Of a stretch of 64,000 nt of DNA, positions 8,623 through 31,560 are shown in pieces (position 1 is the first letter of the stretch; each line of letters starts with the position of its first letter). This DNA comes from Candidatus Dadabacteria bacterium. GTDB taxonomy: Bacteria > Desulfobacterota_D > UBA1144 > Nemesobacterales > Nemesobacteraceae. A model generated the notes under the pieces. That model saw only the letters and a program-made list of their open reading frames with translations, was not told the DNA's origin and ran no database searches. The DNA lies in assembly GCA_022822065.1 (NCBI GenBank), contig JAJECI010000007.1, positions 134,346 to 198,345 of the forward strand, written 5' to 3'. Made by a program: the position numbers and the translations under genes.

Positions 8623-9627
8623 ATGAACCCGAGCAAACCCGCATTTGGGAGGAAGCAATTGTCTCTTACCGGAATCGTCGTTCCCTACTGGGCCGACGTA
8701 AAAAAAGACGATCTCACCTATTTCTCGAAACTGGCAGAAGATCTGGGCTATCACTCCATCTGGGTTCCCGAGATGTGGGGACGAGACGCATTTTCCCTGA
8801 TATCCCACATTGCATCGGTCACAGAAAGGATAAATCTGGCCACCGGCATCATTTCCGTTTACAGCAGGTCTCCAGCACTCATAGCCCAGACGGCGGCCAC
8901 CGTGGATGAGTACTGCGGGGGAAGATTCATACTCGGACTGGGCATAAGCAGCGTTTACCTCAACGAATACTGGCACGGCACGAAATTCGAGCGGCCCCTG
9001 AGACGGACGCTTGAGTGCGTCGAGATAGTAAGGACGATACTCGCGGGAAAGAGGGTTGAATACGAGGGGGAGATTTTCAGGCTTAGAAACTTCAAACTTC
9101 TTTTTAAGCCGCAAAGAAGCGAGATTCCAATATATATCGCATCCATGGGACCGAAAAACATCGAACTTACCTCCCGGGTCGCTGACGGCTGGATTCCCTA
9201 TCTCTGCCCCGTAGACCTTATAAACGAAAGAAAAAAGGTACTTGCTTCCGGCGGAAGAAAAATTACCGTGGCCCCGTTTCTTCCAGCGATGGTTTCTGAG
9301 AACCGAAGCGAATCAAGAGAAATCGTAAGGGAGTTCGTGGCCCTTTACGTATGCTCCATGGGAGATTACTACCACAATCTCGTAAGCAGTTACGGATTCG
9401 GGGATGAAGCGGACAGGGCGAAAAAGCTCTGGAGGGAAAACAGAGCGGAGGCTATAAAAAGCATAAGTGATGAACTGCTTGATCTTGTTTCCGTGAGCGG
9501 TTCCCCGGAAGAAGGAAGAGCAAGGCTCGGGGAGTTCGCCGAGAGCTCCGATCTTCCCATTCTCATGTTTCCCTACAACGCTTCGAGGGAGCAGATAGCT
9601 TTCGCAATGAAAGCGCTGGCTCCTTGA
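8623..9627 (+). CDS. LLM-class (luciferase-like) flavin/F420-dependent oxidoreductase
   Basis: TIM-barrel LLM family pattern (WVPEMWGRDAF..., GLGISSV). Confidence 0.7.
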   Translation: MNPSKPAFGRKQLSLTGIVVPYWADVKKDDLTYFSKLAEDLGYHSIWVPEMWGRDAFSLISHIASVTERINLATGIISVYSRSPALIAQTAATVDEYCGGRFILGLGISSVYLNEYWHGTKFERPLRRTLECVEIVRTILAGKRVEYEGEIFRLRNFKLLFKPQRSEIPIYIASMGPKNIELTSRVADGWIPYLCPVDLINERKKVLASGGRKITVAPFLPAMVSENRSESREIVREFVALYVCSMGDYYHNLVSSYGFGDEADRAKKLWRENRAEAIKSISDELLDLVSVSGSPEEGRARLGEFAESSDLPILMFPYNASREQIAFAMKALAP

Positions 9628-9655
9628 GAAAGCAATCCGATTCAAGGGTCAGGTC

Positions 9656-9684
9656 TTGACATAGCTTTTCGTCCACATTATAAT
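9656..9684 (+). promoter_or_regulatory. sigma70 consensus promoter TTGACA-17nt-TATAAT; start codon 8 nt after the -10, implying a leaderless mRNA
   Basis: TTGACA at 9656-9661, 17-nt spacer, TATAAT at 9679-9684, ATG at 9692. Confidence 0.6.
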
Positions 9685-9691
9685 CTTTTTC

Positions 9692-10537
9692 ATGGCAAGG
9701 CCATTAAGACCGGAATACGCGGGGGCCGTCTATTACGTCTCCTCAGTCGGAAACAGGGGGCAGAGCGTCTTTCAGAACTCAGATGACGGCAATGCATGGA
9801 TAGAAATCCTCGAGGGGGTATGCGGAAGGTTCAGATGCCGCTGCTTTGGTTACTGCCTCATGTCCGACGGATACCATCTGGTCATCGAAACCCCCAAGCC
9901 TAACCTCTCAAAAGCCATAAGACAGCTAAACGGCGTTTACACCCAGCGCTCAAACAGGCTGCACGACACAGACGGCCACGTTTTCCGGGGAAGATACAAA
10001 TCCATAGTTGTCCAGAGGGAAAAATATCTTCTGCCGCTTATGGCCCATATTTTTCTTCTCCCTCTTCGAGCCGGGTTCGTAAAACATCCCAACCAGTTCA
10101 AATGGAGCAGTTGCAGGTATCTCTACGGAAAAGATGAAGCGCCAGGATACGTAGACCTCGAATGGTTCTCAGAAGGTTTCTCTTCGGATACAAGCACTTT
10201 TGATGAGTTTCTGGAAGAGAACAGTTCGCGCGACGTAATCTCGGAAGCCCGAAAGCAGATATATCTCGGCGATGATGAATTCATAGAGCTTGTGCAGGAA
10301 AAAACAAAAGGGAGTTCGCGGTCAAAGGATATTCCCAGGTATCAGCTCACAAAACCCTTACCGGGCATGATAAACGGCTTCATGCAAAATGGACACTCAA
10401 GGGAGGAAGCAATAGCGAAAACCTACCTTACGGGGGACTACACGCTGAGAGAGGTCGCCGCCGCGGTTTCAGTTCACTACTCGGTTGTGAGCAAGATCGT
10501 AAGCGAATACGAGAAAATCTCTTCCCGCTCCCAGTAA
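9692..10537 (+). CDS. Y1 HUH transposase homolog (IS200/IS605 TnpA / RayT-like) fused to a C-terminal DnaA domain IV-like HTH
   Basis: HUH-like GYHLVIET and catalytic Tyr context GHVFRGRYKS; C-terminal ...YTLREVAAAVSVHYSVVSKIV resembles DnaA_C. Confidence 0.65.
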   Translation: MARPLRPEYAGAVYYVSSVGNRGQSVFQNSDDGNAWIEILEGVCGRFRCRCFGYCLMSDGYHLVIETPKPNLSKAIRQLNGVYTQRSNRLHDTDGHVFRGRYKSIVVQREKYLLPLMAHIFLLPLRAGFVKHPNQFKWSSCRYLYGKDEAPGYVDLEWFSEGFSSDTSTFDEFLEENSSRDVISEARKQIYLGDDEFIELVQEKTKGSSRSKDIPRYQLTKPLPGMINGFMQNGHSREEAIAKTYLTGDYTLREVAAAVSVHYSVVSKIVSEYEKISSRSQ

Positions 10538-10543
10538 AAACCC

Positions 10544-12343
10544 TCAGCCGAGTCCGGACTGCTCGGCGAGTTCCTCGACCTCGTCCACCATCGCACCTAT
10601 CACGTCAAGTCCCCTCTGCCAGAAACCGGGGTCGTTTATATCCACCCCGACTCGGGAGAGAAGTTCCGCGGGCGAAGCGCTTCCCCCGGACTGAAGAAGC
10701 CCCATGTAATCGGGCACGAAAGACTTTCCCCGTTCCAAGAACATTCCGTAAAGAGCTAGGGTTAGCAGCTCACCGAAGGAGTACGCATAGCAGTAAAAGG
10801 GAGAGTGTATGAAATGGGGAATGTAAAGCCACCAGTAAGAGTAGTTTTCGGTCAGGGTAACGGAATCTCCGAACATTTCTCGGTTAGCCTCGATCCAAAG
10901 CTCGCTTATTCTTGCGGTCGTAAGCTCCCCCTGATCTCTTCTTTCGCGGTGCAGGCTCTGCTCGAACCTTGTAAGCACCGCCTGTCTGAAGACCGTGGCC
11001 ATTATGTCCTCGAGTTTTTCCGCTACCAGAACCAGCCTGCCTTCGCTTCGCGTTTCTTCCTCCTTGAGACGGTGAAACACGAGCATCTCCGCAAAGACGC
11101 TTGCGGTCTCGGCCGTGGTAAGGGGCGTGTGGGCCTGGAAATAACCCTGCCGCCTCGAAAGATACTGGTGCACGCCGTGGCCAAGCTCGTGAGCCAGAAC
11201 CATCACGTCTCTCGGCTTTCCGGTGTAGTTCATAAAAACATAGGGATGCACGCCGGGAACCGTACCGTGGCTGAAAGCACCCCCTCTTTTCCCGTCCCGA
11301 AGCTCGGCGTCTATCCAGTTTTTCTCGAAGAACAAAGACGCGGTCTTTTTCATCTTGGGTGAAAATTCACCGAATGAAGAAAGCACGATTTCCTCTGCCC
11401 TGTCCCATGGGACCGGCTCCCTTTCCGAACCAAGGGGAGCGTAGCGGTCGTAGTCGTAGAATGTGCGGTACCCGAGAAGTCTTCCCTTGAGCCCGTAGTA
11501 GCGGCTTACGAATCCGAAGTTTCGCTCGCACGATTCAAGCAGAGCCTCAACGGCACCGTGGGATATCTCGTTGCTTAGGTGACGTGCCGACATGGGGTCC
11601 TCGTAGCTTCTAAGCCTGTCGTTTATCGAGTGGTCGTTTACAAGCGTGTTGAATACGTAGGTAAGTACGTGGGAATTCTCCTTAAGTCCCCTTGTGAGAC
11701 CGGACCAAGCCGCCTTTCTTTTCTTCCTGTCCGGGTCGTAAAGAAGCGAGAGGGTACGGGACTGGTTCAGCCTTTCGGTCTTGCCCGAGAGCCTCACACG
11801 AAACTGGATATTATTCACGACCTCGTCAAAAAGCCTTGAAAACGCCCTTTGGCCGGTGTTTGATTTCTCCTGAAGTATTTTCTCCTCAGGCTCCGAGAGA
11901 GTGTGGTCTCTGTACTGTCTTTCCTGCTCGAGAAAATGCCTGTACTCCGAAAGTTTCGGGTTGTTAAGAAGTTTCTTCGCTCTTTTCTTCGGAACCGAGA
12001 CCCATTCAACGTAAAAGAAAATAAGCTTTTTCTGAACTTCCGTCGCCTTCTGCTGCATTGACGAACGAAAGGCGCCGTTTTTGGGATCCCGCGTGTCGGC
12101 CGCAAAAACAAGGTGAGCGAAGGAAAGTATCTTTCCGATTCCTTCCGACAAGCGCTCAAGCTCCCTTACCGCTTCCGCGAGCTTCCCCGAGGTAAGCGAA
12201 GGAGATTTTATCTTCCCCCTGTACTTTTTTTCAAACCTGTCGGCACGCGCCGATATCCTCTTGAAATCCTTCTCCACGCGCAGGTCGGAAATCCCTTCGT
12301 AAAGGTCTGAGAGATCCCATTTTATGTTTTTCGCTTTCGCCAT
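10544..12343 (-). CDS. pepF: oligoendopeptidase F (M3B metallopeptidase)
   Basis: 599 aa, HELGHGVH zinc motif. Confidence 0.85.
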   Translation of the reverse strand: MAKAKNIKWDLSDLYEGISDLRVEKDFKRISARADRFEKKYRGKIKSPSLTSGKLAEAVRELERLSEGIGKILSFAHLVFAADTRDPKNGAFRSSMQQKATEVQKKLIFFYVEWVSVPKKRAKKLLNNPKLSEYRHFLEQERQYRDHTLSEPEEKILQEKSNTGQRAFSRLFDEVVNNIQFRVRLSGKTERLNQSRTLSLLYDPDRKKRKAAWSGLTRGLKENSHVLTYVFNTLVNDHSINDRLRSYEDPMSARHLSNEISHGAVEALLESCERNFGFVSRYYGLKGRLLGYRTFYDYDRYAPLGSEREPVPWDRAEEIVLSSFGEFSPKMKKTASLFFEKNWIDAELRDGKRGGAFSHGTVPGVHPYVFMNYTGKPRDVMVLAHELGHGVHQYLSRRQGYFQAHTPLTTAETASVFAEMLVFHRLKEEETRSEGRLVLVAEKLEDIMATVFRQAVLTRFEQSLHRERRDQGELTTARISELWIEANREMFGDSVTLTENYSYWWLYIPHFIHSPFYCYAYSFGELLTLALYGMFLERGKSFVPDYMGLLQSGGSASPAELLSRVGVDINDPGFWQRGLDVIGAMVDEVEELAEQSGLG

Positions 12344-12382
12344 GTCCGTCTCCGTAGCCCTTTGTCGTGAGCAAGAATAAAG

Positions 12383-12928
12383 TCACTCCTGAAGCAGGTA
12401 TATATCCTCAAGCAATCTTCCCTTTTCCATGTAATCCATTCCGTAGCCCACAAGGAATCCCTCATTTACTCTAAAACCCACATAATTAGGTTCCGGACCC
12501 CCTGCGTCTTTTCCCCTTTTGTCTACAAGCGCGCATATCCGGAGCGAACCCGGGTTTTTCGACTCCACGTGGCGCAGGACAAATTCTGCCGTCTTTGAGG
12601 TATCGATTATATCTTCAATTATTATAACGTCCCGGCCCTCCACGTCGCATTCAATGTCCGCCAGAAGCTCTAGGTGCCCCGGTCGTGTCGCCTTTCTGTA
12701 GCTTGAGGCCCTGAGAAACTGCTTTTCGACCGTAACGGTCACCTGCGCCAGAAGATCCTCAAAAAAGGGGCGCGCTCCCTTGAGAACGCAGACCGCAACG
12801 GGATTTTTTCCCTCGTAGTCCCCCGAAATTTGCTTGGCGAGCCTCGAAACGGCGGTTTTTATATCGTCTTTTGAGAGAAACTTTTTAAGTGCAACGCCTT
12901 CCAGGATTTCGGTTTCTTCAGTCAGGAT
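12383..12928 (-). CDS. hpt: hypoxanthine phosphoribosyltransferase; non-ATG start (ATC at 12928 or CTG at 12925) 6-9 nt after AGGAGGAG, overlapping the folK stop
   Basis: ORF-track Met at 12742 is internal. Frame stays open upstream and encodes the conserved HPRT N-terminus (LKKFLSKDDIKTAVSRLAKQISGDYEGKNPVAVCVLKGARPFFEDL). PRPP motif VIIIEDIIDTSKT. Confidence 0.75.
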   Translation of the reverse strand: MLTEETEILEGVALKKFLSKDDIKTAVSRLAKQISGDYEGKNPVAVCVLKGARPFFEDLLAQVTVTVEKQFLRASSYRKATRPGHLELLADIECDVEGRDVIIIEDIIDTSKTAEFVLRHVESKNPGSLRICALVDKRGKDAGGPEPNYVGFRVNEGFLVGYGMDYMEKGRLLEDIYLLQE

Positions 12929-23070: not shown

Positions 23071-25575
23071 TCAGTGTTCCCGCTCCTCAGAGAAAAAATC
23101 CCGCATCCGCCCGAGTATCTGTTCCGTCTTTGCGCAGAAGAAGTTGCTCCCCGCAACGGAGCTGATAAAGAATTTCCCGTAGTACTTCGACACGATACGC
23201 TTATCAAGAACCATAACAACACCGCGGTCCGTCTTGGTGCGTATGAGTCTCCCGAAGCCCTGTTTGAACCTGAGCACTGCATGGGGAAGTATGTATTCGC
23301 GGAACGAATCTATATCCTGTCTTTCCATGTACTCGATTTTCGCCTCCGTAACCGGGTCCGTGGGGACCTTGAAGGGAAGTCTGCATATGACAACCATCCT
23401 CAGGGAATCCCCGGGAATGTCTACTCCTTCCCAGAAGCTATCGGTCGCGAAAAGCACTGAATTCCCAAGCGTTTTGAATTTCTCAAGCAACAGGCCCCTG
23501 GGCATTTCCCCCTGCTTGAAAAGACTGACCGGTACGGACCCGATGCTCTCAAGGATTTTTCCTGTCTTTTCATAAACCCTGTTAAGCGAGGAGTAGGATG
23601 TGAAAAGCACGAGGGCGTTTCCGTTCGTTACGGAGATCGAGTCTGAGAGTATCCGCGCAAGGGAGTCTTCGTAGTCCTCGTGCCCGGGCTCGGGCATGTC
23701 CGACGGGACCAGCAGCAGGGACTGCGTTCGGAAATCAAACGGTGAATCAACAATAAGCCCCCTGAATCTTTCATTATCCGAAAGTCCGATGTTTTTCCTC
23801 TGAAAATCGAAATTCTTATCCACGGCAAGCGATGCGGAAGTCATAACGACGGTTTTGGTCTTCGAGTAGAGCTTTTCCGAAAGCTCTTTGGATACATCAA
23901 GGGGGGAAAGGTTGATAGAGCAGAAAATCGCCGCGCGCCTGCGGTTCCCCTCAAACCACCTTATATAACTCTCGTCCTTCTCACCAAAAAACCTTCCTAT
24001 GGCTTCGCGGAAAGCAAGGGATCTCTTGGCGATGCCACCAAGTTCAGCGGTGAGTTTTATGTGGGAATCCGCATGCGGTGAGCCCTCGACTACTCCCAGA
24101 AGGTGGGCAATCTCCTTTTCAAGCGAAAAGAGGGATTTTTCAAGTGCCCCGAAGCGCTCCTCAACGGCAGGCCATTTCTCGTGCCGCACAACCTTCTCTG
24201 TGAGCCTCAGGCTTATCGCTGTCTCACCCGAGAGCTCCGCACCAAAACCGTAAAGTGAATTAAAGACCTCCTCGCTTACAACTTCTATACGCTCAACGGC
24301 CCTCGCAAGCCCGCCGCCCGAGCGTTCGAAAACCTCCCTGAGGGCGGAATCTTTTTCTTTCTGCGCAAGGTGCGAGATGTAGGATACAAGCCCCTTGTCC
24401 TTGTTTTTCCGGGAACGGAGCTTTGAGAGGGTTTTCGCAATCCCGTGCTTGCTAAGTTTCAGGCTGAAATGCGAAGTGGCCGCCTCGGCGATATTGTGCG
24501 CCTCGTCGAAAACAACCTTCGCGTAGCGGGGAATTATCCCGAAATCCGAATCGGGTCCCGCAGTTCCTTTTATCGCAATATCGGAAAAAAGCATGTGGTG
24601 GTTGGCAACCAGCACCGAAGCCCTCGACAGCTCCCTCCGCGACTTGAAGAAAAAGCAGCTTGAATAATGAGGGCACTTGGTTGCCGGACAGCTTTCGCTT
24701 TCCGCAGATACCCTGTCCCACACGTCGTCAGGGGGTGTAAACGCAAGATCGGAAAGTGAACCGTCCGCGGTGGTCTTGGCCCACTCAAGCACATCCTTCA
24801 TCGACCCTCTTTCCCCATCGTCTATAAAATCGAAAAGATCCTGCCCGACGGCTTCGCCCCGGAGAAGACAGAAGTAGTTTCTCATTCCTTTAACTAGAGC
24901 ATAATCAAACTTCCTCGGAAAAAGATCCCGAAGGAGAGGAAGGTCCTTGTTTATCAGCTGTTCCTGAAGATTGATGGTATTTGTTGAGACCAAAACCCTC
25001 TCACTGTTGCTAATTGACCAGAGAATGGAAGGTATGAGATAGGAAAGAGTTTTCCCGGTGCCCGTGCCGGCCTCTATCATCGAGAGGTGCTCGTCATTGA
25101 ATGCCTCGATCACGTTTGAAAGAACTTCGAGCTGTTCGTCCCTGTGCTCGTATTTTTCTCCCAGGACACGGGCCACGGGACCTGCAGGCAGGAGATATTC
25201 TCTCGCGGATTCATTGTCAACGCGTACCGTCTCCCCCGGAATAAAGGGCTCAACCACTACGTACACCCTCTCGACCTCGCTGTCCACTATGTAGAAACCG
25301 ACGCCCTTGTTTCCGAAAGCCGAAGCAACCGCCACGTCCTGAGGTGAAGGCTCGAGGTTGCCTGAGGGATGATTGTGCACGACGACGTTCCCCGTCTTCG
25401 CCGCGTCAAGGATGGCCGGAACCGCTTGGCGGTTGCCGCGTGCAAGGACTTTCACATCACACACCAGAGAGCTTTCGTTTATCCTGCCGACGAAAAAAAC
25501 CTCGTTTCCATGGGCTTCCGTTATTGACTCTCTGATGAATTCCGCAGCCTCGGGGGTAAAGTAGCTTTCAATCAT
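23071..25575 (-). CDS. dinG: DinG-family (Rad3/XPD-like) ATP-dependent DNA helicase with N-terminal RadC-like JAB/MPN domain
   Basis: N-terminal HNHPSGNLEPSPQD matches JAMM HxHx7Sx2D; then Walker A AGTGTGKT, DEAH box and the DinG helicase core; 834 aa. Confidence 0.8.
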   Translation of the reverse strand: MIESYFTPEAAEFIRESITEAHGNEVFFVGRINESSLVCDVKVLARGNRQAVPAILDAAKTGNVVVHNHPSGNLEPSPQDVAVASAFGNKGVGFYIVDSEVERVYVVVEPFIPGETVRVDNESAREYLLPAGPVARVLGEKYEHRDEQLEVLSNVIEAFNDEHLSMIEAGTGTGKTLSYLIPSILWSISNSERVLVSTNTINLQEQLINKDLPLLRDLFPRKFDYALVKGMRNYFCLLRGEAVGQDLFDFIDDGERGSMKDVLEWAKTTADGSLSDLAFTPPDDVWDRVSAESESCPATKCPHYSSCFFFKSRRELSRASVLVANHHMLFSDIAIKGTAGPDSDFGIIPRYAKVVFDEAHNIAEAATSHFSLKLSKHGIAKTLSKLRSRKNKDKGLVSYISHLAQKEKDSALREVFERSGGGLARAVERIEVVSEEVFNSLYGFGAELSGETAISLRLTEKVVRHEKWPAVEERFGALEKSLFSLEKEIAHLLGVVEGSPHADSHIKLTAELGGIAKRSLAFREAIGRFFGEKDESYIRWFEGNRRRAAIFCSINLSPLDVSKELSEKLYSKTKTVVMTSASLAVDKNFDFQRKNIGLSDNERFRGLIVDSPFDFRTQSLLLVPSDMPEPGHEDYEDSLARILSDSISVTNGNALVLFTSYSSLNRVYEKTGKILESIGSVPVSLFKQGEMPRGLLLEKFKTLGNSVLFATDSFWEGVDIPGDSLRMVVICRLPFKVPTDPVTEAKIEYMERQDIDSFREYILPHAVLRFKQGFGRLIRTKTDRGVVMVLDKRIVSKYYGKFFISSVAGSNFFCAKTEQILGRMRDFFSEEREH

Positions 25576-25670: not shown

Positions 25671-25761
25671 GGAGGGATGGCCGAGCGGTTTAAGGCGCTG
25701 GTCTCGAAAACCAGTGGGGTCTTTATGGCCCTCGTGGGTTCGAATCCCACTCCCTCCGCCA
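25671..25761 (+). tRNA. tRNA-Ser (anticodon CGA), long variable arm, CCA encoded
   Basis: GGAGGGA acceptor stem, anticodon loop CTCGAAA, long extra arm, TTCGAAT T-loop. Confidence 0.9.
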
Positions 25762-25840: not shown

Positions 25841-25858
25841 ACAAGCAGAAAGAAGCGG

Positions 25859-27811
25859 TCAGGATGCTAGATTGAAAGTAAGCCTTCTTCTCTCCATATC
25901 CGCTGACACGAGCTTCACGCGAACTTCCTCTCCGAGTTCGAACCACTTTCTTTTCCTGCCCTTGATCTTGTAAAAGTGCTCGGGGATGAGCCCCTCGACG
26001 AAGTGCTCTTCTATTTCTATGAAAACCCCGAAGGGGTGTATGCTCAGTATTTTCCCGTGGAATACGTCACCCACGCGGCTTTTCATGAAATTCGCCGTTT
26101 CAAGGTTCATAAACTGGCGCTCCGCATCCTCGGCCGTTCTCTCCAGAAGCGAGCAGCGTTCAGCTATGCGCTTGAGACTGGCGGAGTCGTAGGAAGGTGT
26201 TCTTTTCTGCAGTATCTCATCGATAATTCTGTGAACAACAAGGTCAGGATACCTTCTTATGGGGGAAGTGAAGTGAGTGTAATCGTCTATAGCGAGACCG
26301 AAGTGGGGAACATGCTTTGTTGAGTAAACGGCTTTTTTGAGTGCGCGTAGAATCATAAAGTTTATCTGTTCCCGGTCCTTTCTTCCCGAAGCGGCTTTTA
26401 TCACCGCCTGGATGTCCTGCTGCTTGACCCGTCCTCCTAGGTTTGCCTTGATGCCTATCTTGAGAAGGTTTTCACGCAGTTGTTCTATGGAATCCGGATC
26501 CGGGGATTCGTGAATCCTGTAAATCGATTCGAAACCGTTTCTGAAAACAAACTCTGCGACAACGGAGTTGGCCATGATCATGAACTCCTCTATTATCTCA
26601 TGGGCGACATTCCGCTTAAGTCTGTCGACGTCGCTTACCTCTCCCTTGGAATCGCGAAGCAGCACAGCCTCGGGAAAATCAAAGTCAAGGCCTCCTTTGC
26701 CGATCCTAAGCTCCTTGAGCTTGCAGTAAAGCTCTTTCATCAAAAGCAGGGAAGAAACGATGTTTTTGCCGCGGGAGGATGAAGCAGTGCCGCTTCCTTC
26801 CAAAACGGCCGCGACTTCGGAGTATGTAAGCCTCGCACAGCTTTTTATCACGCTGTTGTATATCCTCGAGTCCTTGAGCCTTCCCGAGGAATCGAAATCC
26901 ATCTCGACCGTCTTGGTAAGCCGTCTTCTCTTGGGGCGCAGGCTGCAAAGATCGTTTGAAAGCCTCTTGGGAAGCATGGGAATCACCCTGTCTGAAAGGT
27001 AGGTGCTGGTGGCCCTGCGGGCGGCTTCCTCGTCACACGCGCTTCCGCAAGCCACGTAATGAGAAACGTCCGCGATACTTACCCGGAGTCTATACCCCTT
27101 GCGGATTTTTTTTATGCCTACAGCATCGTCAAAATCTTTTGCGTCATCCCCGTCTATGGTGAAAATAGTCTCTTTCTCAAGATTCACCCTCGAAGAGAGA
27201 TCCCCGTTTGGTAACTCTGCGCTTAGGCCACCTACCTCTCTTGCCACGTTACGAGAAAAACCCTTCGCAAGACCATATTCTGAGATGATCCCCTTTTTTT
27301 CAGTTTCGATTTCTCCGGACATCCCCAAGCGCTCCGTAACTCTGGCCGACTGTTTCCCCGGCTTAATCTCTATGACTACTAGTTCCCCATCGGAAAAACT
27401 CTTTTTCCACCCTCCGGTTTCAATCTCATACTCAGAGAAATCCACTTTTCTGGGACAGGCGACGAATCCCCTCGAGGCTTCTCTCAGGTCAGCCAGGACC
27501 CTCTGTGAGCTACCGTTTGAGAGGCCGGTTGGAACGATCTTCTTGCGGTTCCCATTAAGAAGGGACACGGGGGAATCCAGGTGCCGACCGTCTTTCCCGG
27601 CACTTTTTTTCCAACGCCCTTGAAGACGGTACCGGCCCTTGGAGGTTTTTTTGAGCTTCCCCTCGAGAACCATTCTCTTCAGCACGGCCCGGATCTTCTC
27701 TCTTTTTCTCTCGGGCATATCAAGCCCCCTGAGAATATTGCCCTCGGAGAGGCTTCTTCCCTCTTTTTCGCTGAGCAGTTTTAGAATCCGCGATTCCCTT
27801 TTGCTTAACAT
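25859..27811 (-). CDS. rnr: ribonuclease R (RNB family 3'-5' exoribonuclease with S1 domain)
   Basis: 650 aa; RNB catalytic region and C-terminal S1. Confidence 0.85.
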   Translation of the reverse strand: MLSKRESRILKLLSEKEGRSLSEGNILRGLDMPERKREKIRAVLKRMVLEGKLKKTSKGRYRLQGRWKKSAGKDGRHLDSPVSLLNGNRKKIVPTGLSNGSSQRVLADLREASRGFVACPRKVDFSEYEIETGGWKKSFSDGELVVIEIKPGKQSARVTERLGMSGEIETEKKGIISEYGLAKGFSRNVAREVGGLSAELPNGDLSSRVNLEKETIFTIDGDDAKDFDDAVGIKKIRKGYRLRVSIADVSHYVACGSACDEEAARRATSTYLSDRVIPMLPKRLSNDLCSLRPKRRRLTKTVEMDFDSSGRLKDSRIYNSVIKSCARLTYSEVAAVLEGSGTASSSRGKNIVSSLLLMKELYCKLKELRIGKGGLDFDFPEAVLLRDSKGEVSDVDRLKRNVAHEIIEEFMIMANSVVAEFVFRNGFESIYRIHESPDPDSIEQLRENLLKIGIKANLGGRVKQQDIQAVIKAASGRKDREQINFMILRALKKAVYSTKHVPHFGLAIDDYTHFTSPIRRYPDLVVHRIIDEILQKRTPSYDSASLKRIAERCSLLERTAEDAERQFMNLETANFMKSRVGDVFHGKILSIHPFGVFIEIEEHFVEGLIPEHFYKIKGRKRKWFELGEEVRVKLVSADMERRRLTFNLAS

Positions 27812-27925
27812 GATATAAACCCGGCCTTCCAGCCGCAGGAGATTCCCTGTTTTAAGAATTGAAATTTACGGGGTCTCGTATACAATAGTGCCGTTTTTCA
27901 TTAATTCTGCTTTCTGGAGCTTCTT

Positions 27926-28108: not shown

Positions 28109-28146
28109 TCCGGTACGCGGAATTTCTTACCAGCTTTTTCTTCTAT

Positions 28147-29154
28147 TCACAAACCCCTGAGCGCAAGCCCCACCGCAACCGCCATTTTCGGGGCCAGATG
28201 TTCAATGTATTCAGGATCAAAACGCGAATCCGAAACGGTGATGTTTCGAAAAGGATTCGAAATCTCGACCGGAACCCCGGTGGCCTCTCCAAGCGCATCG
28301 GCGAGAGTTGCTATTCTTGAAGACCCCCCGGAAAGAATTATTCGGTCGATTACGTCTTCTGCTTCGTCAAGAACCGTCTTTATCTCATCTGTGGCACGAG
28401 CAACGAAATCAGCGAAAACACTCTCTATCTCGTCATACCTGCCGTAACCCTTAATGCTGAATTTTATTCTCTCCGCCTCCTCGTAGGTAATTTTGAATTT
28501 CTCCATCAAACGAAGCGTAATCCATTGCCCTCCAAGCGGAATATCCTTCAGTACAAAAGGCACTGTGCCATCCAGAACGCTCAAGTTAGTCCCTGACGCT
28601 CCGATGTTCACAAGCGCCACCCTTTGACCGCGACCTCGGCAAAAAACTGCGTAGCCGTTTGAAAGGGCCATGGCATCAATATCAACTATCTGGGCGCGAA
28701 GGCCTGCCGAAAAAAGCGAACTTTTATACTCCTGCGCCGTTTTTTTCGAAACCGCAGCAATCAGCACCTGGGTCTCCTCGGATTTTCCATTGTGCCGGAA
28801 AAGCGGAGTGTAGCTGTAATTAACTCCGCTGACGTTTCTGCGAAGACTGGTTCTCACAAGGTCCGGAACAAGCTTTTCCATGTCCTCTCTGAGAAAAATT
28901 CTGGGAACATTGACGATTTTTAAAGCAACGGCTTCGCCGGAAACCCCTATAACCGCCTTTTTCGTTTTTACACCGAGCCTGGAAACCAGACTTGATACAA
29001 CCCCCGAAACTATGTCATCCCTTGAAATCGACTTGCGGATTATCGCACCGCTCGGAAGCATGGCCTCTCCCATATTCTCAAGCCGATAATTTCCACCCTC
29101 GTAGGAAAGTTCCACAGCCTTAACGGAACTTGAACCTATATCTATCCCAACCAT
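28147..29154 (-). CDS. pilM: PilM-like actin-fold ATPase (type IV pilus assembly PilM family)
   Basis: MVGIDIGSSSVKAVEL phosphate-1 motif and full PilM/FtsA-like fold pattern; no pilNOPQ downstream. Confidence 0.8.
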   Translation of the reverse strand: MVGIDIGSSSVKAVELSYEGGNYRLENMGEAMLPSGAIIRKSISRDDIVSGVVSSLVSRLGVKTKKAVIGVSGEAVALKIVNVPRIFLREDMEKLVPDLVRTSLRRNVSGVNYSYTPLFRHNGKSEETQVLIAAVSKKTAQEYKSSLFSAGLRAQIVDIDAMALSNGYAVFCRGRGQRVALVNIGASGTNLSVLDGTVPFVLKDIPLGGQWITLRLMEKFKITYEEAERIKFSIKGYGRYDEIESVFADFVARATDEIKTVLDEAEDVIDRIILSGGSSRIATLADALGEATGVPVEISNPFRNITVSDSRFDPEYIEHLAPKMAVAVGLALRGL

Positions 29155-29246
29155 AGCATCTCTTCCTCAAGGAACGAATCTGGGCTGCGAAGTTTACCGA
29201 AAGCCGGTTTTTTAAAAGGAAAAGTCAACGAAACGGGAATTGGAAA

Positions 29247-29612
29247 CTACTCTTCCACAAGATCGTAATATATCTCTACTTCCCTGGAATGGGCTTCCGG
29301 GGGAAGGTCATCGAAACTGGCCGTGAAGAAGAAGCTTTCCGCCGGATCAAGTCTTTCCCCTTCCTCGACAAGCGCGGAGGTCGCGGCAAGGGCATTCCCA
29401 TCCGAATCCTTTATGAATATAACGACGTAAACCGACTGCACAGGGAAATTCGCCGTATTCACCACGGCGCCGTTAAAATCCACACTTCCGTCAAAGTTCT
29501 CGGTCTGGAGAACCGGTCCGTCGAGCTCGACGGTGGATTCCTCCGCGACGCAGGACGCAAGAAGGAACCCCGCAAGGATAAGTGATAATGTGATCAGAAA
29601 GCTTTTCTTCAT
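29247..29612 (-). CDS. small lipoprotein (hypothetical)
   Basis: signal peptide with lipobox LLASC; 4-nt overlap with upstream gene. Confidence 0.55.
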   Translation of the reverse strand: MKKSFLITLSLILAGFLLASCVAEESTVELDGPVLQTENFDGSVDFNGAVVNTANFPVQSVYVVIFIKDSDGNALAATSALVEEGERLDPAESFFFTASFDDLPPEAHSREVEIYYDLVEE

Positions 29613-30370
29613 TGTTCCAGTTTAGTGCCGGCGTTTGAAATCGAAATTACGTTTGGCGTATCTGCGGTTTCCTCTTTCGCAGTTTTTTTATCTTCAGAGG
29701 TGTGATCCTCTATTATGTCTCCGAGCACCTTGTGCATCAGCTTGAGCGCGCTTATTGAATGCTCCTTTAAATAGCCCTCGCTAAAAGGTATTTCCTCCTT
29801 TTTCCTTCTGAGGAACAGATGAAGAATGAAAGCCTGGTTATTGAGCACCAACAAAATAGCTGCGTAAAGCAGGAAGTTGTCGGCGAAAACCTTTTTCATC
29901 AGTGTTTTCGTGTCGGAATCGATTTTAACTATGCCGAGCGGTCCATCGGCCTGGGGAGCGAGGAACGGAACGGAAACGGAAATTTTCCCGGCGTATTTTT
30001 CAACCGAATACCCCTCGGGTGGATAAGTGCTTTCCATAAAGTGCCCGGAAGCCAATTCGTTCTCAGGCTGTTTGGTGAAAGTGACGCTGAAAAACTTCGG
30101 CGAGACTCCGAAGGTGTTAAACAGCTTCTCCCTGCCCAGCCTTTCGTCAAGAAAAAGATAGAACTCGTCGCTCGTGGGTGCCTCCCCGTGATCCTGGTAG
30201 AAACTGGTTGCCTGGTCTCCTATCGTCTCTGCTATGGCTCTGGTCTTAGTGACAAAGTCTTTTTTGGCGTTGTCAAACTGAAAATAGAACACCAGCCCTA
30301 TAAGGGCTATGATGCCCAGCTCAACCATTGATATTTTGAACAGCAGTCCAAATTTTTGGTTCAGGCGCAT
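29609..30370 (-). CDS. two-TM membrane protein with ~130-aa periplasmic domain (hypothetical)
   Basis: TM helices at about residues 15-37 and 172-195; overlaps the XRE gene by 10 nt. Confidence 0.55.
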   Translation of the reverse strand: MRLNQKFGLLFKISMVELGIIALIGLVFYFQFDNAKKDFVTKTRAIAETIGDQATSFYQDHGEAPTSDEFYLFLDERLGREKLFNTFGVSPKFFSVTFTKQPENELASGHFMESTYPPEGYSVEKYAGKISVSVPFLAPQADGPLGIVKIDSDTKTLMKKVFADNFLLYAAILLVLNNQAFILHLFLRRKKEEIPFSEGYLKEHSISALKLMHKVLGDIIEDHTSEDKKTAKEETADTPNVISISNAGTKLEQ

Positions 30371-30774
30371 TTTACAAACTCTTCAAGTATTTTGCGTAGC
30401 TTTTTGTCCTGGGAATGTCGGAGAAGCATGAATACCATTCCGGCAAAATCCTTTTTTATTTCTCCGTCAAGGCTTCTGTAAAGCTTGACGAGCATCTTCT
30501 CCTCGTTTGTGAGAACCTCGAGTTCCTGTTCGGATATGGCCTCTTTTTCGATGAATCTTTTTAGTCTCTCCGCCCTTGAAACGCTCCAGACCTCTTCAAC
30601 CTTGACCCCCAAGATTGAAGATATCTGCTGGCAGCGGTCAAAGGAGGGCGCGTCAACCTTTCCGGTTTCAAGCTGATGTATGTACACGCTCGAAACCTCA
30701 AGAGATCGAGCGAGGTTCTCCTGGGTAATCTTCCTTCTCTTCCTTATCCTCTTTAGATAATCTCCAAACTTCAT
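30361..30774 (-). CDS. XRE-family HTH transcriptional regulator
   Basis: N-terminal ITQENLARSLEVSSVYIHQLETGK HTH. Confidence 0.75.
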   Translation of the reverse strand: MKFGDYLKRIRKRRKITQENLARSLEVSSVYIHQLETGKVDAPSFDRCQQISSILGVKVEEVWSVSRAERLKRFIEKEAISEQELEVLTNEEKMLVKLYRSLDGEIKKDFAGMVFMLLRHSQDKKLRKILEEFVKCA

Positions 30775-30974
30775 TCAAAACTCCTCCGAGAATAAAATAG
30801 TACTTCGTAGCTAATTCTAACCTAATGTGCATAACAAAACAATCTAGTCAGACGCATCTTAGGGCCACGGGTTAAAAACGGGAAGAAGCAGGGGGAGGAT
30901 ACTTCGGTCTACGGCCACTGCGATCCCTGGCTGCGCAACTTAGCCTTCAGCAAGTGCCGGGTCGGAACAAAGAG

Positions 30975-31430
30975 TCAGAACGATGCGCAGGTATCTATCA
31001 CTTGGCGCAGCACCGCCCCCCGGGCAAACCTTTGTTTGTATTCCTCAATAATTGTGTCTATCTTGGGAGCAGAATCAGCATCCGGCGGGACGAGAATTAT
31101 AAGTACCTTAGTGTGCTCTCTTATCAGATCTCCAGAAGCATCCGTGTACTGTCCCTTGGCATCCAGAACGGTAAGGCCGTCTGGAAACTCAGAAGTTACG
31201 GGACTTTCCAAGAATTCACTCCAAGCCTCGTCGCTAACGGCTTTGGGATTATTTCCGTCCCCACGCCCGAAAAAAAGCTTGTATTCGGTATAAGGCTCGG
31301 TGCCGGCCGGACACGGGTTTGTCCGGGCTTCAGAAGAACATGACAGGATGAAAGCGCAGGCCGCAAGAGCCACGACAGTGACTAGTGCGCCAACCGTTTG
31401 ATTAAAGGTCCTCAGCATAAACTCCCTCAC
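30975..31430 (-). CDS. lipoprotein (hypothetical, possibly DUF3574-like)
   Basis: signal peptide plus lipobox ILSCSS. Confidence 0.5.
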   Translation of the reverse strand: MREFMLRTFNQTVGALVTVVALAACAFILSCSSEARTNPCPAGTEPYTEYKLFFGRGDGNNPKAVSDEAWSEFLESPVTSEFPDGLTVLDAKGQYTDASGDLIREHTKVLIILVPPDADSAPKIDTIIEEYKQRFARGAVLRQVIDTCASF

Positions 31431-31487
31431 TTAAGCGGAGAGCCGTAAGAATTCCGTTCTCCCCGCGAGAACACTACGGAAATGGTG

Positions 31488-31560
<73 letters not shown>

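Follow-up and report, generated by a model that had tools for sequence, protein, structure and literature searches.

A pilM gene that has outlived pilNOPQ next to a putative sensor-regulator operon in Candidatus Dadabacteria

PilM is usually taken to be an obligate component of the PilMNOP alignment complex, and is also reported to contact PilB, PilC and PilT. Regulators with an XRE-type helix-turn-helix (HTH) domain that are paired with a membrane protein or fused to one, such as CylR1/CylR2 of Enterococcus faecalis and BcrR, carry out non-canonical signal transduction, and NlpE-CpxA is an example of an envelope sensor that is assisted by a lipoprotein. In Helicobacter pylori, homologues of PilM, PilN and PilO are found in the cage of the flagellar motor, and the organism is reported to lack a type IV pilus (PMC10823254). 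The locus described here lies in a 64-kb stretch of DNA of a Candidatus Dadabacteria bacterium (contig JAJECI010000007.1; the whole stretch is called the window) and carries a pilM gene behind three genes for an XRE regulator, a two-transmembrane (2TM) membrane protein and a lipoprotein, together called the trio, with no pilN, pilO, pilP or pilQ. The analysis covered the 64-kb window and, for relatives, the locus plus flanks of each genome, the basis for comparison being about 110 related Dadabacteria loci. The window, which corresponds to locus L001 and is identical to part of a 528-kb metagenome scaffold, forms with L002-4, L010-12, L043 and L048 a single clade (the window clade, or group 1). 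As an explanation of the locus as a whole, we consider it probable that pilM is a maintained relic of a pilMNOPQ operon, captured by a neighbouring autonomous and putatively sensor-regulatory operon; with low confidence, it would act as an adaptor in a role that is free of PilN.

Loss of pilNOPQ from an ancestral operon

The window pilM is the positional orthologue of the pilM gene of pilMNOPQ operons, left by a deletion that extends from pilN to the gene for a Cys-rich protein. This follows from the flanks and the gene order, which are the same as in relatives with a complete operon, only the part from pilN to the Cys-rich gene being missing. The ancestral order is tRNA-Phe, XRE, 2TM, lipoprotein, pilM, pilN, pilO, pilP, pilQ, u1, u2, Cys-rich gene, 60-aa gene, rnr and tRNA-Ser, and the loci of the window clade show this order minus pilN through the Cys-rich gene. 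Due to the deletion, pilM ends 38 bp from the convergent 60-aa gene, at a site (28109-28146) where the relatives contain pilN, pilO, pilP, pilQ, u1, u2 and the Cys-rich 212-aa gene. Further outward, amt and a BBP2 porin gene flank the tRNA-Phe side in the window clade, and the 60-aa gene, rnr and tRNA-Ser are on the other side. An earlier reading of the letters without database searches (the sequence-only reading) had considered the gene a paralog, a view that gives way to positional orthology. Its observation that pilM stands alone held up, since tblastn searches of the 64 kb with PilN, PilO, PilP and PilQ of related Dadabacteria found no pilN/O/P/Q (best E 0.2). Pilus domains are absent from ten further window open reading frames (ORFs), and no pilN/O/P/Q is present within 10 kb in L001, L010-12, L043 and L048. 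A remnant of pilN 3' of pilM was considered and excluded by the 38 bp to the 60-aa gene and by the negative tblastn result. The features of the locus are as follows.

25671..25761, plus strand: tRNA-Ser(CGA) gene, a conserved landmark beyond rnr
25859..27811, minus strand: rnr (RNase R), the conserved distal flank, identified by TIGR02063, TIGR00358 and PF00773 scores
27926..28108, plus strand: 60-aa gene for a protein with two transmembrane segments, divergent from rnr and located between pilM and rnr
28109..28146, no strand: deletion junction, where pilM and the convergent 60-aa gene are 38 bp apart, counted from stop codon to stop codon
28147..29154, minus strand: pilM, 335 aa, sole survivor of the ancestral pilMNOPQ-u1-u2
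29155..29246, minus strand: lipoprotein-pilM spacer of 92 nt, without the canonical pilM promoter
29247..29612, minus strand: lipoprotein gene, 121 aa, lipobox LLASC
29609..30370, minus strand: 2TM membrane protein gene, 253 aa, no known family
30361..30774, minus strand: XRE regulator gene, 137 aa, PF01381
30814..30842, minus strand: promoter-like element of the trio operon, TTGTTT, 17 nt, TAGAAT, with a GGAGG ribosome-binding site (RBS) at 30783-30787
30975..31430, minus strand: DUF3574 gene (PF12098, 106 bits), within the slot of variable content that separates tRNA-Phe from the XRE gene
31487..31560, minus strand: tRNA-Phe(GAA) gene, a conserved landmark 5' of the XRE gene

The four minus-strand ORFs of pilM and the trio and both tRNA genes are located where the sequence-only reading had put them, and the XRE, 2TM and lipoprotein genes are in the tight overlap that it described (10 nt for XRE/2TM and 4 nt for 2TM/lipoprotein, followed by a gap of 92 nt to pilM); two genes, the 60-aa gene and the DUF3574 gene, had been overlooked.

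In L005 (a 3.1-Mb genome) and L009 (bacterium HR37), the trio is located just 5' of a complete pilMNOPQ, which is followed by u1 and u2. A scan of the genome collection that was anchored on the Dadabacteria secretin yielded 30 loci, and 20 of these have the order trio-pilMNOPQ-u1-u2, followed after 0-5 kb by the 60-aa gene, on the opposite strand, and rnr. In two further genome loci (L026 and L027) the trio is inverted, lying on the strand opposite to pilM. A metagenome scan anchored on the 2TM protein gave 69 more loci, of which 29 contain the full operon (six of them with the inverted trio) and 17 are too short for judgement. The u1 and u2 genes (L005:16588-18057; L009:17470-18950) are conserved signal-peptide/lipoprotein genes that follow pilQ in most Dadabacteria; u1 has a weak match to the Ig-like family Big_1 and u2 matches no family, and they may encode lineage-specific accessory proteins of the pilus. 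The Cys-rich 212-aa protein (MKCILCEKRKPKRYCPAKRTSIC...; L084:3429-4067 and about 35 other loci) adjoins the 60-aa gene in canonical Dadabacteria and in the group 2 loci described below, and its gene is missing from the window group and from L036. The latter locus belongs to a lineage that branches deeply and whose pilMNOPQ-u1 is complete, if divergent. Like the window clade, it has a short lipoprotein-pilM spacer, encodes a lipoprotein of 121 aa and lacks u2 and the Cys-rich gene. It has the appearance of an intermediate stage, with the reservation that it is weakly placed. Each of the pil genes of L036 is unusually divergent, and its secretin (9530-12688) measures 1,052 aa, an expansion that comprises additional N-terminal domains, among them a cadherin-type Pfam match.

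A second lineage in which only pilM is left (group 2) is represented by nine complete and four truncated metagenome loci of low GC content (37-41%), with the order trio, gap, an intact pilM for 344-345 aa, Cys-rich gene, 60-aa gene and rnr. According to neighbour-joining trees, both the trio genes and PilM of group 2 cluster with the full-operon lineages of L005, L016 and L030, apart from the window group. On the basis of this clustering, pilNOPQ appears to have been lost at least twice independently, with pilM kept under constraint, and a later loss of pilM itself appears to have taken place in one sublineage. Group 2 PilM keeps the N-terminal extension and part of the W-E-L-E-Q motif that are discussed below. 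The ratio of nonsynonymous to synonymous substitution rates (dN/dS) of its gene is 0.11-0.13, as compared to about 0.05-0.07 for pilM in full operons.

Because tRNA genes are present on both sides, and because the slot beside tRNA-Phe holds variable cargo (DUF3574, toxin-antitoxin genes, insertion sequence elements), the segment from tRNA to tRNA might be taken for a horizontally acquired island, which is the context that the sequence-only reading had suggested. This explanation is almost certainly wrong, and for the four genes it is refuted by conserved synteny. Gene order, both tRNAs included, is kept across Dadabacteria, and the tRNA genes serve as landmarks in genomes with the full pilus operon as well. 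Thus far along the locus, tRNA-Phe(GAA) is found 130-250 nt 5' of the XRE gene in L009, L011, L012, L030 and L036, and tRNA-Ser(CGA) beyond rnr in L001, L010, L030, L036 and L043. The identities follow those of neighbouring housekeeping genes, an integrase is absent, and the composition is unremarkable, with a GC content of 0.47-0.49 at the locus versus 0.51 overall, a slight dip only, in agreement with the earlier statement that GC is not obviously atypical. The variable part is limited to the slot between tRNA-Phe and XRE (window 30775-31486), a small hot spot of changing cargo, which contains FitA/PIN toxin-antitoxin genes in L043, an IS1595 transposase gene in L012, a collagen/hemolysin-type gene in L010 and five genes in L005. 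The DUF3574 gene, present in L001-4 and L043, is likewise outside the conserved block.

The surviving PilM and its transcription

The 335-aa product, which starts with MVGIDIGSSSVKAVEL, is a PilM protein, as the sequence-only reading had it. It passes the cut-offs of both families, with 175.1 bits for TIGR01175 (cut-off 133) and 174.3 bits for PF11104 (cut-off 27; residues 3-334), and its nearest solved relatives are the PilM proteins of M. xanthus, P. aeruginosa and T. thermophilus. The AlphaFold2 (AF2) model (predicted local distance difference test, pLDDT, 90.7; predicted template modelling score, pTM, 0.90) has an actin-like (ASKHA) fold that includes the 1C subdomain, and Foldseek gives it TM-scores of 0.90 to 2YCH and 3JC8 and 0.87 to 5EOU. 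The fit to PilN-bound PilM (0.87-0.90) is better than that to PilN-free PilM (0.76-0.79) and to FtsA (0.70-0.76). The nucleotide-binding motifs for phosphate 1, phosphate 2 and adenosine (GIDIGSSSVK, VNIGASGT and LSGGSS) are conserved throughout the orphan clade.

Among 91 positions that are conserved in PilM proteins in general, 65 are kept, including DIGS, NIGAS and GGSS, and 26 are lost. The lost positions concentrate in residues 75-114, with changes of W to D, E to R, P to F and D to S. In the first 1C helix, the sequence IPWELEQYIP (W-E-x-E-Q-Y-I-P) has been swapped for a different motif that is conserved in the clade. Furthermore, the N-terminal extension before strand 1 is missing, the protein beginning directly at MVGIDIGS, and a 7-residue segment after EIKxxLD is absent from window-clade PilM. 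Relatives with the 335-aa form show a continuous range of identities from 92% to 48%, followed by values of at most 39% for canonical PilMs, and the relatives with the 335-aa form are monophyletic and located on a long branch.

The lone pilM gene is under purifying selection. Its dN/dS (Nei-Gojobori) is 0.20 for the window versus L043 and 0.16 for L010 versus L011, and 0.16-0.22 overall, which is the highest in the neighbourhood (0.04-0.18 for neighbouring genes) and far below 1. The gene is intact in all members of the window clade that were examined, with ORFs of 334-338 aa across pairs in which synonymous sites are saturated. It is very unlikely that pilM is a functionless leftover in the process of being lost, spared because the deletions took the distal part of the operon. 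Against this, lone pilM has dN/dS values of 0.11-0.22, far below neutrality, two independent lineages have kept its ORF free of interruptions and constant in length at saturated synonymous divergence, its replacement motifs are conserved within the clade, and its model is confident. What would fit a leftover is that dN/dS is raised relative to canonical pilM, that a sublineage of group 2 has no pilM, and that divergence is fast. Window PilM is 36-37% identical to PilM of L005 and L009, which are 62% identical to each other, versus 58-69% for the XRE and 2TM proteins and 44-46% for the lipoprotein when the window is compared with the same two loci.

It is also quite unlikely that PilM serves a pilus-like or type II secretion-like machine that is encoded elsewhere in the genome. 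The fold and the nucleotide-binding motifs are intact and the best superposition is on PilN-bound PilM, and 64 kb plus flanks were read per genome, which leaves room for such a machine. However, pilN through pilQ are cleanly deleted at the ancestral site, PilM evolves 2-4 times faster, and residues of 1C as well as the N-terminal extension have been lost. A Dadabacteria-type secretin was not found on any contig with the length of an orphan-type genome, in two tests that are weak because one used two peptide patterns only and the other, with L036 PilQ as the query, missed the known secretin of L005. Pilus ATPase genes are absent from the loci that were retrieved. Type II secretion-type genes have been reported only in non-streamlined Dadabacteria clades by Graham and Tully (PMC8115339), whose supplements contain no pilus genes and no pilus KEGG entries. 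The literature gave nothing on Dadabacteria pili beyond this one remark on type II secretion, and nothing for the term "orphan pilM".

Transcription of pilM has probably been rewired as well. In 18 pilMNOPQ loci an identical promoter precedes pilM, consisting of TATTGCAA, 15 nt and GGTTAAAT, followed by GGAGG and a TTG start. This canonical promoter (L005:11580-11610 and 17 other loci) is of the sigma70 type, and further conserved blocks are located 5' of it within the 400-470-nt spacer. It was not found in the window at up to 3 mismatches, nor in any orphan-type locus. In canonical loci, the lipoprotein gene and pilM are 400-470 nt apart or have genes between them, whereas the distance is 92-105 nt in L036 and the orphan clade, and neither a terminator nor a sigma70-like site is predicted in the 92 nt of the window. 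Since the own promoter is lost, the spacer short and a terminator not predicted, co-transcription with the trio is the likeliest arrangement, and with moderate confidence, judging from these sequence features, pilM would now be the fourth gene of the upstream XRE operon. The promoter of that operon was missed by a consensus scan because its -35 element is weak, and its -10 element (TAGAAT/TAAAAT) and the GGAGG are kept 5' of XRE across lineages. A search for an XRE operator common to the regions 5' of XRE and of pilM revealed promoter elements only and no universally conserved palindrome.

The trio and candidate partners of PilM

The XRE protein matches PF01381 (HTH_3) over residues 7-61 with 44.1 bits (cut-off 23), and its matches in the Protein Data Bank (PDB) are HTH domains of the PbsX family and of CylR2. 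Identity is 38-48% over the full length even in the most distant trios. The C-terminal half is helical and strongly conserved, with an invariant K-C-A end in 16 aligned Dadabacteria sequences; the distant homologues of L044 and L045 have a different C-terminal end. The XRE protein may contact the tail of the 2TM protein through its conserved hydrophobic stretch DFxGM[VI][FY]MLLRH.

For the 2TM protein, two hydrophobic segments with positively charged flanks and about 130 residues between them give a layout of a 12-residue cytoplasmic N-terminus, TM1 at about 13-32, a periplasmic alpha/beta domain at about 33-160 and TM2, which carries a polar NNQ, at about 161-187. The 65-residue tail has one conserved helix and a C-terminal NVISIS motif. 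This cytoplasmic helix, GYLKEHSI(S/G)ALKLMHKVLGDIIEDH, is nearly invariant, with GYLKEHxIGALKxxHKxLGDIIxDH as its family form. The protein matches no Pfam or NCBIfam family, Pfam Cache included, and only 29 clusters belong to its own family according to an exhaustive profile search that covered 1.84 billion representative proteins. The top 30 or so Foldseek matches of its model are nearly all Cache/PDC domains, with one GAF domain as the exception (E 2.8e-4 to 0.1, TM-scores 0.27-0.41, model pLDDT 61.7), and they include WalK, Mlp37, PctA/C, CqsR, Tlp3 and DctB. A cytoplasmic transmitter domain (kinase, HAMP, MCP or GGDEF) is absent. The lipoprotein is beta-rich, with a borderline match to FxLYD (NF038353, 22.2 bits versus a cut-off of 23). 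Searches of PDB sequences with profiles of the 2TM protein and the lipoprotein gave no matches. The possibility of a defence system was rejected, as PADLOC gave only generic HTH matches for XRE and one sub-threshold CARF_TM match (E 0.0012, 16.6 bits) for the 60-aa protein, while PilM, the lipoprotein and the 2TM protein had none.

The 253-aa and 121-aa proteins are not simply diverged PilN and PilO, a possibility that the sequence-only reading had named as one that would overturn it. Comparison with hhalign gave probabilities of 0.4% for the 2TM protein against PilN, 3.9% against PilO (the TM segment only) and 0.5% for the lipoprotein against PilO, and family matches are lacking. Nor do they replace PilN and PilO, since they are not mutually exclusive with these proteins: in about 50 loci, both are encoded next to a true PilN and a true PilO. 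The trio also occurs in the absence of pilM, among others in L068, L069 and L098. The distant trio of L044 is recognizable by a 2TM protein of 30% identity, an XRE protein of 44-48% identity over its full length and a lipoprotein of 32% identity (E 3e-10), and L045 has XRE and 2TM homologues and no pilM. In L007 and L008 (11286-12290), the trio without pilM is followed by genes for two paralogous Zn_ribbon_8 proteins of 169 and 160 aa.

With moderate to low confidence, we regard the trio, which is not specific for PilM, as an autonomous unit that does not consist of pilus parts, and, with the same reserve and by analogy, as what may be a sensor-regulator signalling module. In such a module, the Cache/PDC-like periplasmic domain of the 2TM protein, aided by the lipoprotein, would sense an envelope or external cue, and the conserved cytoplasmic helix would control the XRE regulator, for example by holding it at the membrane. 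The idea of a dedicated set of PilM partners, which the sequence-only reading had put forward, does not fit a trio that adjoins complete, separately promoted pilMNOPQ operons and also exists without pilM. The expected co-occurrence of the four genes applies in the window clade, where every genome examined has them in the same order, and fails in some other lineages, where the trio lacks a nearby pilM. The earlier interpretation is thus partly supported.

It is rather doubtful that PilM, the 2TM protein and the lipoprotein form one envelope-spanning machine under control of XRE, in which the 2TM protein replaces PilN as the anchor. The four genes are contiguous in all group-1 loci, the 92-nt spacer is without a terminator, and the 1C helix of PilM carries a new motif, conserved in the clade, in place of the old one. 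The N-terminus of the 2TM protein, MRLNQK[LF]GLL, has an entropy of 0.33 bits in the clade, as in structured regions, versus 1.50 bits in canonical lineages, where it is among the most variable parts, a contrast that is confounded by narrower sampling of the orphan clade. On the other hand, the trio is older than the orphan state, coexists with true PilN/PilO and a separately promoted pilM, and exists without pilM; moreover, pilM is kept in group 2 without fusion of the operons, and the 2TM protein bears no similarity to PilN or PilO.

The 60-aa protein has two TM segments, is conserved and very strongly constrained (dN/dS 0-0.1), and is always encoded in a divergent pair with rnr, with a promoter-like site at 27859-27886 and a GGAG RBS. 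Its N-terminus, MLRTNILG, resembles the PilM-binding N-terminus of PilN, MIRINLLP, and among 3,334 six-frame ORFs the pattern M[ILVM][RK]xN[ILV][ILVP], which was defined post hoc, matches only PilN and the 60-aa family. The motif continues straight into the membrane segment. This PilN-like N-terminus is to be seen as a lead, not a result.

The account that we prefer, in which a maintained relic of pilMNOPQ has been captured by an autonomous sensor-regulator operon, would leave PilM in the cytoplasm as an adaptor that binds nucleotide and attaches to a membrane protein by way of a short cytoplasmic peptide of the latter. Candidates for this peptide would be either end of the 2TM protein (the N-terminus or the C-terminal tail) and the 60-aa protein's PilN-like N-terminus. 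We propose a role of PilM that requires no pilus with low confidence.

Several points weigh against this account. The model of the 2TM protein is of low confidence and its fold matches are weak, the gene trees are neighbour-joining trees without support values, and the secretin negatives have the limits given above. The trio lacks a nearby pilM in L007/8, L044, L045 and L080-83. The dN/dS of orphan pilM is 2-4 times that of full-operon pilM, so that constraint on the gene is relaxed, and L080-83, which are nested in group 2, have lost pilM, so that it is dispensable in this sublineage. In group 2, pilM keeps its own upstream region and its product the N-terminal extension; thus, retention of pilM does not require fusion to the trio operon. 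Finally, most of the N-terminal motif of the 60-aa protein is still present where pilM has been lost, which weakens the case for this protein as an obligate anchor of PilM; at position 3 of the motif, N takes the place of K or R in L080 and L082, the two loci of the group 2 sublineage without pilM that were read.

A more far-reaching version, in which PilM has a pilus-independent job and has been captured transcriptionally and perhaps physically by the XRE/Cache-like/lipoprotein module to give a new kind of envelope-signalling complex, seems to us speculative and on the unlikely side; if true, such a job would explain why PilM outlived pilNOPQ twice.

Some observations concern the neighbourhood. 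The rnr product scores 576 bits with TIGR02063, slightly under the curated cut-off of 597.85, passes TIGR00358 (VacB/RNase II superfamily) with 445.3 versus 368.6, and has 359 bits with PF00773. Between the window and the near-identical strains L002 and L003, DNA identity is 99-100% both in the helicase gene and in the stretch that extends from the DUF3574 gene to the end of the 60-aa gene, and only 75-86% in rnr (window 25850-27800), which looks like an allelic replacement confined to this gene. The helicase gene (window 23071-25575, minus strand, 834 aa) encodes a DinG-like protein with DEAD_2 and Helicase_C_2 domains and a weak N-terminal RadC/JAB-like match. An Rfam scan of the region detected only tRNAs and no other structured RNA.

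Comparison with known systems

Since pilNOPQ was apparently removed twice and PilM kept under selection, we argue for activities or partners of PilM beyond PilN, and the locus suggests that PilM can be useful without its usual pilus partners. The natural series of deletions supplies concrete sequences for a PilN-independent PilM. For annotation, it means that a lone "type IV pilus assembly protein PilM" in these genomes is no evidence for pili. The trio is a small, previously unannotated three-gene module. Since it is a fixed neighbour of the pilus operon in most of the Dadabacteria that were examined, it is a candidate for the regulation of pilus biogenesis in these uncultured bacteria.

Compared with the PilM proteins of PilMNOP(Q) systems (T. 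thermophilus 2YCH, P. aeruginosa 5EOU, M. xanthus 3JC8), window PilM has the same four-subdomain actin-like fold with 1C, has the nucleotide-binding motifs and passes the family cut-offs, and its gene corresponds in position to pilM of pilMNOPQ. It differs from PilM of type IVa systems by the absence of pilN/O/P/Q and of an own promoter at the locus, the loss of the N-terminal extension, the replaced 1C motif, the 7-residue deletion and a 2-4 times faster evolution. FtsA, which associates with FtsN and FtsZ peptides, has the same PilM/FtsA-type fold with 1C (TM-scores 0.70-0.76) and is likewise an adaptor that docks on short peptides of membrane or division proteins, whereas window PilM reaches only 42 bits against a cut-off of 176 for FtsA, no C-terminal amphipathic helix was noted in it, and it is not part of a division cluster. 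The flagellar motor cage of H. pylori, where proteins of the pilus alignment complex have been kept and put to use, is a precedent for a pilus-independent PilM. There, PilM stays together with PilN and PilO, both in the operon and in the complex, whereas window PilM is alone and a flagellar link was not seen.

For the trio, CylR1/CylR2 and BcrR offer the parallel of an XRE regulator that works with a membrane protein, and the HTH match to CylR2 was computed. The membrane parts are non-homologous, and the trio differs further by its large periplasmic domain, its lipoprotein and the extra conserved C-terminal domain of XRE. The 2TM protein would share with Cache/PDC sensors (WalK with YycH/YycI, Mlp37, PctA, DctB) the TM-sensor-TM arrangement and an accessory extracytoplasmic partner, the fold matches being consistent but weak, and it differs from them by the absence of a kinase, HAMP, MCP or GGDEF output, by its 65-residue tail, by the lack of a Pfam Cache match and by the low confidence of its model. 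In having an accessory extracytoplasmic partner, a part that the lipoprotein would play, the trio would also resemble the lipoprotein-assisted envelope sensor RcsF-IgaA.

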